In this document: piece by piece, positions 2,263 through 58,835 of the stretch
Numbering within the stretch: the stretch's first letter is position 1
Layout of the letters: each line of letters opens with the position of its first letter
From: Eledone cirrhosa
Taxonomy: Eukaryota
Length of the DNA: 64,000 bases
Direction: 5' to 3'
Assembly: GCA_964016885.1 (NCBI GenBank)
Contig: OZ024742.1
Location: forward strand, 316,944,001 to 317,008,000
Program-made: the position numbers and the translations under genes
Notes under the pieces: model-generated
The model's database searches: none
What the model was told of the DNA's origin: nothing
Seen by the model: the letters and a program-made list of their open reading frames with translations, nothing else

Positions 2263-2470
2263 TAACAAACAAAGTGTGGTAAGGAACCAGGTGGACCAGA
2301 ACGCACCAGAGTACTCAATATGTTGGGTATTAGAGTGGGTAATAGGAAAAGAGTCAGGACCCTGACGGCTGAGCTCCGGCCGTTTCGTCAGCTAGATCCG
2401 AACTGGAGTTCTGATCTAGTTGTCGAAACGACCGGAGCTCAGCCGTTGGGCTCCTGACACGTTTCCTATA
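2263..2470 (-). mobile_element. Short fold-back element, family A (3' half of a hammerhead), in (TA)n
   Basis: Inverted arms ~2341-2398 and ~2413-2470; GAAACGGCCGGAGCTCAGCCGTC forms stem III plus a GTC triplet; related copies at 4015, 36450 and 48258. Confidence 0.75.
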
Positions 2471-2477
2471 TATATAT

Positions 2478-2834
2478 GAAATCGTGTATAGAAACAAATA
2501 TTGTTATACTTGGGGAGGGTCATATTTGTGTAATATTGCCAGACTAAATATAAATGGCGTAGACATACAATGTAACGGGAGGAAACAATAGCACCACTGA
2601 CGATGTTGCAGGTGTGCAACGAAAGAACTTTGATAAACTATATATATCTGTTTGAGTCTATATTGTATCTGTATTATTTTTGACCGTTGGTCAGTCAATG
2701 GCAACATTGAGGACCGAATAAATTAGATTACCGATATAAAAGACACACAAGCGAAAAGCGAAAACCATGTGAGTCTGTTCTGTTATTAGTTCTGGCAATA
2801 TTACACAAATATGACCCTCCCCAAGTATAACAAT
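2478..2834. mobile_element. Short PLE-like element with inverted ends and a hammerhead-like core
   Basis: ~50-bp inverted repeats at 2497-2550 and 2782-2834; CTGACGA-TGTTGCA-GGTG-TGCAAC-GAAA at 2597-2624; (TA)n on both sides. Confidence 0.65.
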
Positions 2835-4014
2835 ATATATATATATATATATATATATATATATATATATATATATATATATATATATATATATATATAT
2901 ATATATATATATATATATATATATATATATATGTATATATATATATATATATGTATATATATATATAATATACATATACATATATTTATATATATATATA
3001 TATATATACCCTTGGGCCCTCAATTCTATCTAAAATGGCCATGAAATAGGAAAGAATAGAAATGAGTGTAGATATAAAAAGGAAGAAGTAGAAGAATCGA
3101 GGCCCAAACGATACCGGTACTTTATTTATCGACTCCGATATATGGATAGGCATAGCAGAATCCGGAAACATTGAATGGGAAGTACAGAGAGACGGAACAA
3201 TTAGCGCAATGTATTTAACCTGACATTCTTTTGACTATCAACTGCACAGTAGAACTTATGGTGTGTGTGTTCGTGTTTTTATGTGTGCGTGAGTGTGCGT
3301 CTCTGTGCATATACATTTAGGTTTAATGTTGGCATCGAAAACGTTGGTACTAAATGAGTGTAGCAGGATTTATTTATTTATAGAAATTCATATGAATTAA
3401 ATTGAGGCTGGTTTATTCATTTCAAATTGAAAGACATGAAGCAGAAAAGTAACTTTCTCAGTTAACTTCAACCATCCATTTGCGCTCAATTATATATTTC
3501 ATATAGCCTAAACAAACAGATCAACACATAATTTATCTAAGAATTCAATTATCAATATGTATATATATATATATATATATATATATATATATATATATAT
3601 ATATATATATATATATATATATATATATATGCAAAAGTTTTATTTAAAATGTTGGGTTACAACGAGTAAATATTTTATAACTGATATAAAAGCACTCAAC
3701 AGAATTTTGGAGTATTTTACGATATTAAACAAATGGAAATTACATTTATAAAACAATATTTATTTCATTATATATATTTCAGGGATATCATATTAAAAAT
3801 ATGGTATGCCCTCTTCAGACAAAATACAAAATATAGACAGTTTTATAAATAAATTTGACATACCTTAGAGTTTACAACTTCCATTTAAAAAGTTGTTATA
3901 TATATATTTATATATGTGGGAAGGGGGTGTATAATGTGGGTTAGACAATAAAAACGTTTTAAAGTGAAACTTCGTTATATTTAACATATATATAAGTATA
4001 TATACACATATATA

Positions 4015-4221
4015 TAACAAAGGAGTTGTGGTAAGGAACCAGATGGACCATAACGCACCAGAGTACTCAATACTTAGGGTAGTAGAGTGGGTAATAGAAG
4101 AAAGTATGACCCCGACGGCAGAGCTCAAGCCGTTTCGACGGCTATTTCTGGACTCTATTTCTTGAGTCCAGAAATAGCCGTCGCAATGGCTTGAGCTCTG
4201 CCGTCGGAGGTCATGCTTTCA
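4015..4221 (-). mobile_element. Short fold-back element, family A
   Basis: Homologous to 2263-2470; hairpin centred near 4158; (TA)n flanks. Confidence 0.75.
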
Positions 4222-4252
4222 TATATATATATATATAATTTTAATATACATG

Positions 4253-55900: not shown

Positions 55901-56344
55901 CGGGGCAGGCCCCTACGTAGTCCCAGCGTGCATCTAGGATACCATTCCAGTCCCCCACTAATAGCAAGGAGCGGGACGTCCCTAGAAAAGTCTCCAGACG
56001 AAAGGGCCGTAGGCGGCTACCAACCTAAACGCTCCGCCTTTACCACTGCCAAGGTCCAGAACCACTAGTCGACCCTCCGGGTCCAAATGTACCATCTGTG
56101 TTGCGAGACCCAGATGTTTTTGCAGCAGAACGACAACTCCACCCCCACCTCCGGGCTGACAGAGAGATGCGTGCATCTCAAAGTCATCAAAGGTGGGGGC
56201 CAGCTGTCGCACGTTGCTGATCCGGGCCTCGCAAATAACCATCACATCTATACGTTGTGACCTGAGGTCATTTAGAAGCATTGCTTGCTTCCAAGTTGAG
56301 CCCAGGCCACGCGCATTTAAACAGCCTACTCTTAGCATAGCCAT
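52935..56344 (-). CDS. LINE ORF2 (AP endonuclease, reverse transcriptase, CCHC), frameshifted near 56002
   Basis: MAMLRVGCLNARGL..ICE..DPEGRLV..YGP / LLVGDWN..SYLDRFL..SDHK; SPGLDGLPYE, FRPITLLN, DQSKAFDRVDH, QGCPLS, YADD, LLGVWF; CPRC-x8-H-x4-C. Confidence 0.93.
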
Positions 56345-56368
56345 GTTGGTGGTGAAGAGAAAAGGCAC

Positions 56369-58098
56369 TTACCTCTCTGCGTCCCGGGTATCGGGCTGCA
56401 CAATTTCCATTAGGGTGGGGGATGGGTTGTTGGGTGGGGTGGTGGTTTGTGGAAGTGTGGGGGCATCAGTGTGTTGTGTGGTTGGGGAGCTTGGAGTTGT
56501 GTGGGTGTTTGGGGAGGGGGTGGGATAGTTTTTTAGGAGGACGCGGTTAATGGGCCCGACGCAGGGGGGACCCACGTCCTCTTTAAAATTGTTTTTTAAA
56601 GTTTTATAGGTGTCCTGTGGGGCCTTAATCATTTTGAGGTGGGGGAAATCCCCTGCCTGGGTGAAGTTAGGCCCTTGTGTTTTTATTAGATTGTTGTTGT
56701 ACACAATGTTTAACAGTTTTTTGTTTCTTGTATTTATGTATGTGTATGCATGTTTTTGTTTTTGTGTGGTGTTTTTTGTTTGCTGTTGTTGTGAGCTCTT
56801 TTGTGTTGGTGTCAGTGTTATGTTTTGGGGAGGGGTTTTTTTCATTTGTGTGTCTGAGGTGTGTTTTCTTTTTTTTCTTTTGATTGTGTGAAAGTGCTCC
56901 TCCTCGTCTGACGACGAACTAGGGTCATCTTCCACGTTGGAGGGGAGGGGTATATTTTCGGGTTGTGTTTGCGGTACGGGTGTTTTGGAAATTGTTTTTG
57001 TTTTTTGAGTGGAGGGGATGGGTTGGACATTGTTTTGTTTTGGTTTGAGCTGTGGTGGTTGTTTTTGTAGTGGTAGTTGTGGTGATTGTGTTGGTTGTGC
57101 AGTTGTTGGTGGTGTAGGCAGGATTGGGGTTTTCTTATTAAGTTGGGGACAGACAGCCCTCAGGTGACCTCTGGTTCCGCAGAGGTAACACGAGGGCCGT
57201 CTACCCTCAACGGTAATGTTGATGAAGGTTAGATCATCCAGTATGACGCGTTCAGGGATCTGGGCGATCCTTTCGGGCCTCATTTGAACTACAAGTTCGA
57301 GGCTCGTTCCACTGAACGCGTCACCCGATGCCTTTCCCATGGACACCAGCATGTCATCCTCCAGGTCCAGAAAACCTGTCAAAACCCACCATATGTCCAT
57401 AATCGGCAGGATGGTGTGGATTTTTATTTTTTGTGTTCTTCTACTCATGTACGTAGGGTAGAAGGTGTATGCGGTGGATGTGATTGGTTTGATGGACAGT
57501 TTCACTGCTGTGTCCCTGTCCTTCATGAGAATGGATAGACTCCCGTAGAGTCTATCCTTCTGAATGAAGGTGATGTCCTTCATGACGTCTTTTAAAACCA
57601 GCTCTATCTCGCTCTGTGATGGTTGAGCTGGTCTTTTACTTTTGTTCGAGATTGTCCTAAACATGACCGTGTTTAGGAGTCTCTGGCTTTTTAGTTCCGG
57701 GGGGGGGGATGGATTGTGAATGAACCATTTTCCCCGTACACTATATATATTTTCGCATCCGCCAGTAGCTCCTTCGCTTTTGTTATATCTACTGGCAGAT
57801 AGTCGAGGGTTTTCCTTGTCGTCTCGGCGAAGGAGAAATTTTGTTTGTTTGTGTTGTTGTTATCATTGTTGTTGTTGTCACCGTTATTGGTCTTGTTGTT
57901 GTTGTTATTGTTATTGTTATTGGTGTTGTTTTCGTCCGTCGCATTGTTGTTGTTGTTGCTGTTGCTGCTGGTTCTTTGGGTTGTTGCCATGGCAACGTCA
58001 AGTTGTCTGTTAACAGATGGAGAGAATTCTTCCTCTGGCTGACCTTTCTTCTTGACCTCTGCTACTGTGACAGTGGCAGGGGGAAGCTGTAAGTTCAT
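56369..58098 (-). CDS. LINE ORF1 (gag-like, zinc knuckle), split by a 1-nt indel in a C10 run at 57699-57708
   Basis: ATG at 58098, poly-Asn tract; adding one C joins it to the 431-aa frame containing VEGRRPS-CYLCGTRGHLRAVC (CX2CX4HX4C) and a P/Q/K-rich tail. Confidence 0.85.
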
Positions 58099-58444
58099 CT
58101 TCCCCTTTCCTCCTTCGAATTTTGGTGAGAAGCTTCGGCTATTTAAAAAAATATTGACTTTTCAACAAGAAAAAACTTTTTTTTTTTGTTTAACTATTTC
58201 GCCTAAAGGCGCAGAATATTTTGAGAGACTGACCAGATCAAAGTTTGACCTGGCAGTCCCTCTACAAAATGGTACAAAAATTAAAGTTATCAGACAAGAA
58301 TTTCTATAGAAATTTAAACAGAACTTACTCAGCAAGTTATACGCGTGTGTCCATCCCAGAGATAGATAGATAGATAGATAGATAGATAGATAGATAGATA
58401 GATAGATAGATAGACACGGATGTGTATGATTGTGTATAGAAGAT

Positions 58445-58835
58445 TATATTAATAAGAGGAATTCCAACTTTGTCTGATTTACTCGTTTTATTTACAATCC
58501 TTTAAAATTTATAATGGTATTATAATGAAATAGTATGATAGAATATTAAATGTTAAGTGTTAATTGAACAAGTACTTTCATGCTTTCGCAATCTTCAGGT
58601 TCATAATATGTGGTGACAGTCAAGTTTGCAATTTTCAACTGTTGAAAATTGCAAACTTGACTGTCACCACATATTATGAACCTGAAGATTGCGAAAGCAT
58701 GAAAGTACTTGTTCAATTAACACTTAACATCTAATATTCTACCATACTATTTCATTATAATACCATTATAAATTTTAAAGGATTGTAAATAAAACGAGTA
58801 AATCAGACAAAGTTGGAATTCCTCTTATTAATATA
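58445..58835. mobile_element. ~390-bp near-perfect palindromic element with a hammerhead in each arm
   Basis: Centre TTTTCAAC-T-GTTGAAAA at 58640; right arm runs into (TA)n. Confidence 0.85.
58677..58715 (+). ncRNA. Minimal type I hammerhead ribozyme (mirror copy on the minus strand at 58565-58603)
   Basis: TGAAC-CTGAAGA-T-TGC-GAAA-GCA-T-GAAAG-TA-CTT^GTTCA; palindromic AAGTACTT. Confidence 0.8.

Follow-up and report, generated by a model that had tools for sequence, protein, structure and literature searches.

Hammerhead motifs at the TA tracts of an Eledone cirrhosa locus: truncated ends of Penelope-like elements and three retrozyme-like units

Which elements supply the many short inserts with hammerhead ribozyme motifs that crowd the (TA)n tracts of one stretch of the Eledone cirrhosa genome? 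The stretch (hereafter the window) comprises 64,000 nt (contig OZ024742.1, positions 316,944,001 to 317,008,000) of a 3.0-Gb genome and is AT-rich and dense in (TA)n tracts. The original prediction, made from the letters of the window, saw in the inserts a single system of non-coding mini-elements from many unrelated families, with no autonomous partner in sight. That they are microsatellite-targeted pieces of hammerhead-bearing retroelements, tied to Penelope-like elements (PLEs) and retrozymes, is borne out here; that they form one non-coding system is not. With a probability of roughly 0.85, the (TA)n inserts represent truncated ends of twelve autonomous PLE families, together with three units lacking an open reading frame (ORF), here termed U1, U2 and U3, that are likely copied in trans by PLE proteins.

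Judged by sequence, 12 of the 17 families in the window (A, B, C, F, G, H, O, P, Q, R, S and T, the link of T being weaker) are 5'-truncated, often inverted 3' ends of PLEs, i.e. pseudo-long terminal repeats (pLTRs), and only three are ORF-less units. When extended in the 5' direction, as had been proposed as a check, these twelve run co-linearly into PLE coding sequence with reverse transcriptase (RT) and GIY-YIG nuclease elsewhere in the genome; up to 60 loci per family, ranked by likeness to the query, were read, and for several families only the nuclease end lay within the locus. The window itself indeed holds no autonomous partner, but partners exist genome-wide for these 12 of 17 families. 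All 150 of the 150 scored genome matches to the GIY-YIG domain exceed the Pfam cut-off (10,597 candidates). A pLTR on both sides of the ORF was seen for four families: R flanks a 938-amino acid (aa) frame with RT and GIY-YIG (locus L043; GIY-YIG over the cut-off, RVT_1 just under it at E 2e-6), P lies on both sides of the ORF in L049, L055 and L060, copies of H stand 3,802 bp apart around a coding region (L325-L334), and A flanks a 786-aa frame (L313). For the other eight PLE families this arrangement was not seen in the loci read; here the ORF end lies upstream, co-linearly and without a TA break, in 10 of 30 matches for S, 15 of 20 for Q and 1 of 1 for O, in 2 of 20 loci for C, three printed loci for F, 8 of 25 loci for B and 2 of 25 for G. 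Family T likely belongs to the PLE 3' ends as well, with one co-linear locus via a microsatellite-rich untranslated region (UTR) and nested inserts, and two inverted loci, where the inverted arm consists of the ORF end or of its UTR.

The parent of family A, placed from the flanks of other families' loci, shows in translation an RW-K/R motif, DKT, a CxCX5C linker, no CCHH, and flanking CxxC and CxH; by these marks rather than by a tree, it belongs to the Hydra clade as described (PMC8557442). The protein gave no Pfam match. The family is very young and recently active: at least 57 nuclease copies are identical across the whole 157-aa query, and several open frames of 786-795 aa are present (L313, L379). 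Clade labels other than Hydra are read from motifs. Under such a label, Neptune-like ORFs (the 466-610 aa region at L043; L046, L049, L055) carry an insertion of ~25 aa in the RT fingers region; those at L043 and L049 also have a long N-terminal part, which may be frameshifted. Searching the genome with nuclease proteins for additional PLE families yielded nothing beyond near-identical copies of the families used as queries. In the window, these families and two further ones, D and I, are distributed as follows (positions within the window; strand in brackets, with a dot where none is assigned):

2263..2466 (-), family A: 3' end, truncated and inverted, of a Hydra-clade PLE, with only the hammerhead 3' half
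2467..2836 (+), family B: PLE 3' end whose inverted arm is short; hammerhead 2592-2633
3632..3898 (-), family H: Hydra-like PLE 3' end; complete hammerhead 3761-3826
4011..4237 (-), family A: copy with inverted arms
4239..4475 (-), family T: likely Hydra-like PLE 3' end; hammerhead 4253-4303
5457..6640 (+), family C: long C/A-rich 3' UTR and PLE end; minimal hammerhead 6515-6548; a second fragment at 14864-14930
6653..7044 (.), family O: PLE 3' ends placed head-to-head, with hammerheads 6773-6809(-) and 6888-6924(+)
7085..7850 (+), family T: copy whose leader is rich in microsatellites; hammerhead 7717-7767
9697..10062 (.), family D: head-to-head arms; hammerhead 3' half 9923-9948
14499..14820 (.), family R: head-to-head pLTR ends of a PLE found at full length; U3-A8 hammerheads 14628-14664(-) and 14712-14748(+)
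15072..15109 (-), family I: damaged hammerhead-like motif
32313..32495 (.), family T: subfamily with inverted arms; hammerhead 32315-32364(-)
32964..33173 (-), family F: Hydra-like PLE 3' end; U4A hammerhead 33080-33126
34219..34634 (.), family G: PLE 3' ends placed head-to-head, with hammerheads 34346-34412(-) and, damaged, 34535-34602(+)
34825..35055 (+), family Q: PLE 3' end; U3-A8 hammerhead 34838-34875, changed in stem II
36446..36642 (-), family A: copy with inverted arms
46132..46490 (+), family F: copy; U4A hammerhead 46327-46377
47043..47222 (-), family P: PLE pLTR end; U3-A8 motif 47147-47182 with GCAA for GAAA
48259..48401 (.), family A: fragment
58414..58835 (.), family S: head-to-head PLE 3' ends, left arm with 43-nt tail; hammerheads 58565-58603(-) and 58677-58715(+)

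The insertions share an anatomy beyond their position. In every family the 3' ends fall preferentially at two points, 43-117 nt from one another, and in the head-to-head pairs of eight PLE-linked families (a count that excludes C, O, P and Q), 81 of 92 combine a long with a short end; one pair is long-long, one short-short, and nine have one end elsewhere. Family D has the same anatomy (8 of 9 pairs long-short). A pair of fixed internal ends, together with inversions that each join a long arm to a short one, has been described as unique to PLEs (PMC11167929). The ORF-less units U2 and U3 show this signature too, with 14 of 19 and 3 of 5 long-short pairs, respectively, and no like-like pair.

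The three units occupy the following positions:

4581..5458 (-), U1: 1.7 copies of an ORF-less tandem unit (reference 468 nt) and a short inverted arm; hammerhead 4894-4938
10895..11283 (+), U3: part of the ORF-less 683-nt unit; hammerhead 10959-11039; a further fragment at 16530-16632 (-)
50131..50918 (.), U2: ORF-less 524-nt unit, head-to-head, with its long arm on the left and its short one on the right; hammerheads 50303-50387(-) and 50781-50863(+)

On the evidence of their sequence, U1, U2 and U3 are closed, retrozyme-like tandem units: they are ORF-less, with one type I hammerhead per unit and a low GC content (34-36%), their reference lengths are 468, 524 and 683 nt, their tandem periods are 416-556 (U1), mostly 523-525 (U2) and 677-683 nt (U3), and the longest ATG frame measures 53-74 aa. 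They are likely copied in trans, with cleavage and expression as putative properties. The 524-nt return joint of U2 is present in contigs of four of four public runs from one study, possibly of the source sample; these contigs show neither U2 ends nor expression. Upstream of the hammerheads in the R, P and S pLTRs and in U2 lie words that we take to be CCAAT-box-like and E-box-like, a possible promoter common to both classes. Copies of U3 recur at ~60-kb steps in C12:17028703-17488215, which suggests a larger tandem segmental repeat.

Could U1-U3, like the rest, simply be pLTR fragments of autonomous PLEs, their tandems arising by local duplication of solo pLTRs and spreading in a satellite-like manner? 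As 12 of the other 14 families proved to be such fragments, the question is a natural one, and in frogs 24 of 57 tandem families match annotated transposable elements (21/22 PLEs), local amplification having been proposed there (10.64898/2026.07.22.740005). One U1 array, with at least 14 units and hammerhead sites in 10 kb and neighbors ~89% alike, also resembles an old satellite. Past the tested end, however, no copy of U1-U3 enters an ORF: the unit restarts or a microsatellite begins in 72 of 72 copies of U1, 35 of 35 of U2 and 20 of 20 of U3, whereas the pLTRs of the first class continue into the ORF. Near-matches to the unit restart were judged by eye in this test, and for U3 the main end (372-377) was used rather than the longest; at the two minor ends of U3, 33 of 34 copies continue or meet TA. 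Nor did the units match any of 13 recovered UTR/pLTR regions at E 0.05, a comparison that samples the PLE families of the genome; a match between A and G in the same comparison came from a neighboring insert within the slice and was discounted. Where U sequence was present downstream of the 230 nuclease 3' ends recorded in 411 loci, it was confined to what seem to be separate nested inserts. Finally, many chromosomes carry scattered partial tandems that share the closed junction and have fresh TA flanks and inversions. Taken together, we consider this fragment explanation unlikely. Conceivable, though less likely than not, is that U1-U3 are free-standing viroid-like hammerhead circles with no pLTR of this genome as ancestor, each having acquired a pair of internal start sites by which it parasitizes PLE proteins.

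How such insertions could arise is suggested by published PLE biochemistry. The lizard PLE PAc Poseidon, studied in purified form, nicks both strands of AT-rich DNA, and its reverse transcription begins at two internal RNA sites, which set the limits of the tail; hammerhead cleavage is dispensable for it, and the hammerhead of this element cuts only when the protein is present (PMC11167929). By analogy, the GIY-YIG nuclease would nick AT-rich DNA on both strands, reverse transcription would begin at two internal RNA sites, one per strand, and then stop early, and the early stops would leave short mirror-image stumps. Such stumps would keep the hammerhead because the start sites are located 40-310 nt downstream of it: counted from the predicted cut, the main ends are 40 to ~310 nt farther downstream, and short TA-rich words come after them. 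The template would be an uncleaved tandem RNA or a religated circle rather than a linear cleaved monomer. Of 233 5' truncation points, 4 fall no more than 4 nt from the cut site, where a uniform spread would give ~9, and 126 of the 233 copies read through this site; the 5' ends are BLAST ends of copies found by chance in the loci of other families, with overlapping loci not fully removed. These properties would account for the stumps and inversions, for tails that occur on one side only and for copies that read through the cut site. Since U2 and U3 show the PLE end signature, PLE proteins would likely copy them in trans by the same route, and probably U1 as well. New elements would land in TA tracts beside old ones and thereby give rise to mixed clusters. 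Twin-priming by pairing to (TA)n, which we also considered, fits the TA-rich start words and is unneeded given the published two-site initiation.

The hammerhead motifs of the window are real, as judged by a conserved core with three stems in type I order, the contrast to shuffled sequence and compensatory stem changes, their cleavage being predicted. A type I descriptor tolerating a mismatch at 10.1-11.1 found six CUGANGA sites in the window versus a mean of 0.03 (maximum 1) in 30 block-wise dinucleotide shuffles; a wider one, which adds U3-A8, C4 and A4 cores, found eight versus 0.125 (maximum 2) in 40 shuffles, and 378 distinct matches in the 1.28 Mb of genome loci examined. The motifs thus exceed the dinucleotide-shuffled rate, on which the original prediction had been made to depend. 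The descriptor was relaxed only after the window sequence had been read, its first version, which requires a paired 10.1-11.1, giving one match in the window, and among the best 150 of 166 rows of an Rfam scan of the window there was no hammerhead family, only microRNA-like hairpin noise. Taken with the weak folding z-scores given below, these points would speak for motifs that are chance or miniature inverted-repeat transposable element-like palindromes, devoid of ribozyme ancestry. The shuffle contrast and the fixed position of the motif near the PLE 3' end, however, speak against this, as do compensatory changes at 3 of 12 stem pairs in family B, 6 of 13 in U1 and 3 of 14 in U3 (homologs gathered by sequence likeness; a U2 alignment, off by one base in a C-run, was set aside). 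The covariation scores were reached by 0, 0 and 3 of 500 shuffles, respectively, with slid controls far lower; the sets of 6, 8 and 4 sequences are small, hand-picked and related, and relatedness inflates such scores. Covariation among family copies, a further check that had been suggested, is hence present in three families, and we regard an origin by chance as extremely improbable.

The status of individual sites needed some correction. Among the seven sites that had been called complete or near-complete, four pass (4253-4303, 4894-4938, 50303-50387 on the minus strand and 58677-58715), and the other three carry a single damaging change relative to their own family, a mismatch at the base of stem III (7717-7767, 10959-11039) or of stem I (32315-32364). 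Several of the sites regarded as degenerate turned out to be family-wide core variants (U3-A8 or U4A) (14712, 33100, 34845) or minimal motifs with a short stem I (2597, 6519, 6892); at 9932 and in all window copies of family A only the hammerhead 3' half is present, and 15071 is a damaged motif on the minus strand. Sites absent from the earlier list are 3761-3826(-), 6773-6809(-), 14628-14664(-), 34346-34412(-), 34535-34602, 46327-46377, 47147-47182(-), 50781-50863 and 58565-58603(-). All five palindromes named for stem III were recovered, ACTAGT and ACCGGT among them, and the view that the families are many and unrelated holds for the 17, only P and R being alike (72% over 121 nt) apart from low-complexity matches. 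At least ten further hammerhead families, from outside the window, occur in flanking TA tracts (L022, L043, L044, L050, L055, L061 and the descriptor tally).

The core variants are, for the most part, shared throughout their families. The U3-A8 core of R is intact in 13 of 19 copies, F has CAGAAGA (U4A) in all 34 copies shown (of 46 in total), P has GCAA in place of GAAA in all seven shown (of nine), and C has CUGAGGA in 16 of 20. Families A and D have intact motifs elsewhere in the genome. Family-wide variants at the core and at pair 10.1-11.1 (U4A, GCAA, C.A and A.A) explain why Rfam misses these hammerheads.

That the elements are bounded by (TA)n, as had been claimed, is confirmed: (TA)4 lies within 16 nt of 25 of 36 element 3' ends placed by hand in the window, against a background of 4.9% of window positions, and 32 of 36 adjoin some microsatellite. 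The row for U1 was dropped from the TA comparison, being swamped by an internal microsatellite. Comparison ends in the genome loci gave 6 of 60 at TA for a short interspersed nuclear element (SINE).

Several observations weigh against the reading given above. The long-short arrangement was found in only 2 of 12 pairs of U1, whose short end lies inside the internal microsatellite, and U3 has two additional minor ends. The link of T crosses low-complexity sequence and nested inserts, and D and I (2 of 17 families) lack a parent and stand in neither class, no co-linear ORF end having been found for D in 20 loci (one extension met a microsatellite) and no genome search having been aimed at I. A rarer autonomous parent of U1-U3 could be missed in the locus sample. 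The usual paired 10.1-11.1 (G-C) is absent from seven families, with U.U in S, T, F, Q and U1, C.A in U2 and A.A in D; it is paired in R, A, B, C, O and U3. U.U, a tolerated variant, and U3-A8 have both been published (PMC3088659). Five complete window motifs, a sixth fold that covered its motif incompletely being set aside, do not fold as a full hammerhead at minimum energy (z 0.0 to -1.7), which would be expected of minimal hammerheads, yet gives monomer activity no backing; in frogs, cleavage was found for one of nine tandem units tested (10.64898/2026.07.22.740005). The start sites of PAc Poseidon lie in an AC-rich stem-loop lacking homology with the target, in contrast to the TA-rich words that follow here (PMC11167929). 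Lastly, the loci were chosen in TA-rich places, and the ends of RTE-like long interspersed nuclear elements (LINEs) are also followed by TA (10 of 16), so that this second element class may target the same TA tracts; TA adjacency alone, therefore, does not indicate PLEs.

This last point bears on whether a LINE could be the helper, U1-U3 then being retrozymes that cycle via abundant circular RNA and are copied by an RTE or L1/Tx1 reverse transcriptase. The window holds elements of both kinds, by labels that are our assumption: what we take to be an L1/Tx1-like LINE spans 52660-58360(-), with an endonuclease and RT coding region and a microsatellite at its end, a second fragment of presumably the same kind, again with a microsatellite at its end, occupies 1-1680(-), and presumed RTE-like pieces lie at 39600-40260, 41626-42040, 44430-46122, 46750-47009 and 61990-62775. 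LINEs have also been named as possible helpers (PMC7229834). We nevertheless consider this rather improbable, in view of the PLE-unique long-short end signature of U2 and U3 and of the absence of poly-A tails at the ends printed.

Further contents of the window may be mentioned briefly. An abundant SINE-like repeat has about nine copies (1890-2100, 8800-8980, 11530-11705, 16070-16280, 18620-18830, 39100-39280, 43850-43925, 59000-59140 and 59790-59990). Additional elements with inverted arms or repeated elsewhere, some of them beside TA (23882-24168, 38590-39010, 43300-44130, 44176-44369 and 62952-63098), are possibly extra PLE ends; none has a hammerhead passing the descriptor. At 22565-23856, a segment of ~400 nt is duplicated on either side of a (TATG)n tract.

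Much of this has precedents. For metazoan PLEs, pLTR hammerheads of type I with a short palindromic stem III, the U3-A8 variant and an extra base before stem II are known, as are many families per genome, the motifs being mostly solo or in inverted pairs 100-700 bp apart within truncated copies (PMC4209133); that study stresses a conserved G10.1-C11.1, whereas here U.U, C.A and A.A occur, along with U4A in F and GCAA in P. Likewise described are tails and inversions, the use of (TA)n as a target, PLE derivatives that are non-autonomous, and the Naiad and Hydra families of octopus (PMC8557442, PMC3846280). Endonuclease-bearing (EN+) PLEs of the Hydra, Neptune and Nematis types share with our families the partial tandems, the inverted 5' copy, the one-sided tail and the (TA)n preference, with tails of 30-40 nt there versus 43-117 nt in the window families (PMC8557442). 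An octopus Hydra family with a hammerhead and a (TA)n target is listed in that work; by eye, no window motif is like the listed hammerhead, and the families of the window may be unlisted so far. An octopus repeat annotation reports 31 recently active Penelope-like families, its main text containing neither 'hammerhead' nor 'ribozyme' (PMC13282606), and the accompanying library may already hold the families found here. PAc Poseidon also has two internal start sites that define the tail and nicks both strands at AT-rich DNA, and its main template, uncleaved RNA, fits the absence of truncation at the cut site in our copies (PMC11167929).

As regards U1-U3, non-LTR retrozymes are equally ORF-less tandems with one type I hammerhead per unit and a GC content below 45%, range from dimers to long arrays and have PLEs as proposed helpers (PMC7229834, 10.64898/2026.07.22.740005); the unit lengths fall within the 51-972 bp of the 2026 survey (10.64898/2026.07.22.740005). 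Abundant linear and circular monomer RNA is a further mark of retrozymes. The species lists of both papers are, in the parts covered, without a cephalopod. Non-autonomous elements of Chlamys such as MRC1 are ORF-less, pLTR-forming, multicopy head-to-tail PLE derivatives as well, but resemble their autonomous families at the 3' end and belong to a clade without canonical hammerheads (PMC8557442). The literature searched yielded neither ORF-less hammerhead units that bear the tail signature of PLEs nor cephalopod retrozymes.

The bulk of the finding is thus ordinary PLE debris, dense in this genome; the original prediction had counted its novelty as lost should all families be already-annotated PLE pLTRs, and 12 of the 17 are PLE pLTRs. 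Hammerheads in PLEs, the targeting of TA, initiation at two sites and the view of retrozymes as non-autonomous PLEs have all been published. What is new is insertion-level evidence for trans-mobilization in units without recovered pLTR homology. The helper of animal retrozymes has so far been argued from co-occurrence and pLTR homology; here, the PLE-specific signature of two start sites is itself present in the units of 524 and 683 nt, which are non-coding, and the Hydra-clade family would provide a recently active enzyme, which makes trans-mobilization directly testable. The family-wide variants U4A, GCAA, C.A and A.A are naturally occurring material for testing how much drift a protein-assisted hammerhead tolerates. 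Should U1-U3 prove to be independent, viroid-like units, insertion anatomy would for the first time have shown the helper class of retrozymes, and the very young Hydra-clade family that this genome also holds would make retrozyme mobilization testable in vitro.

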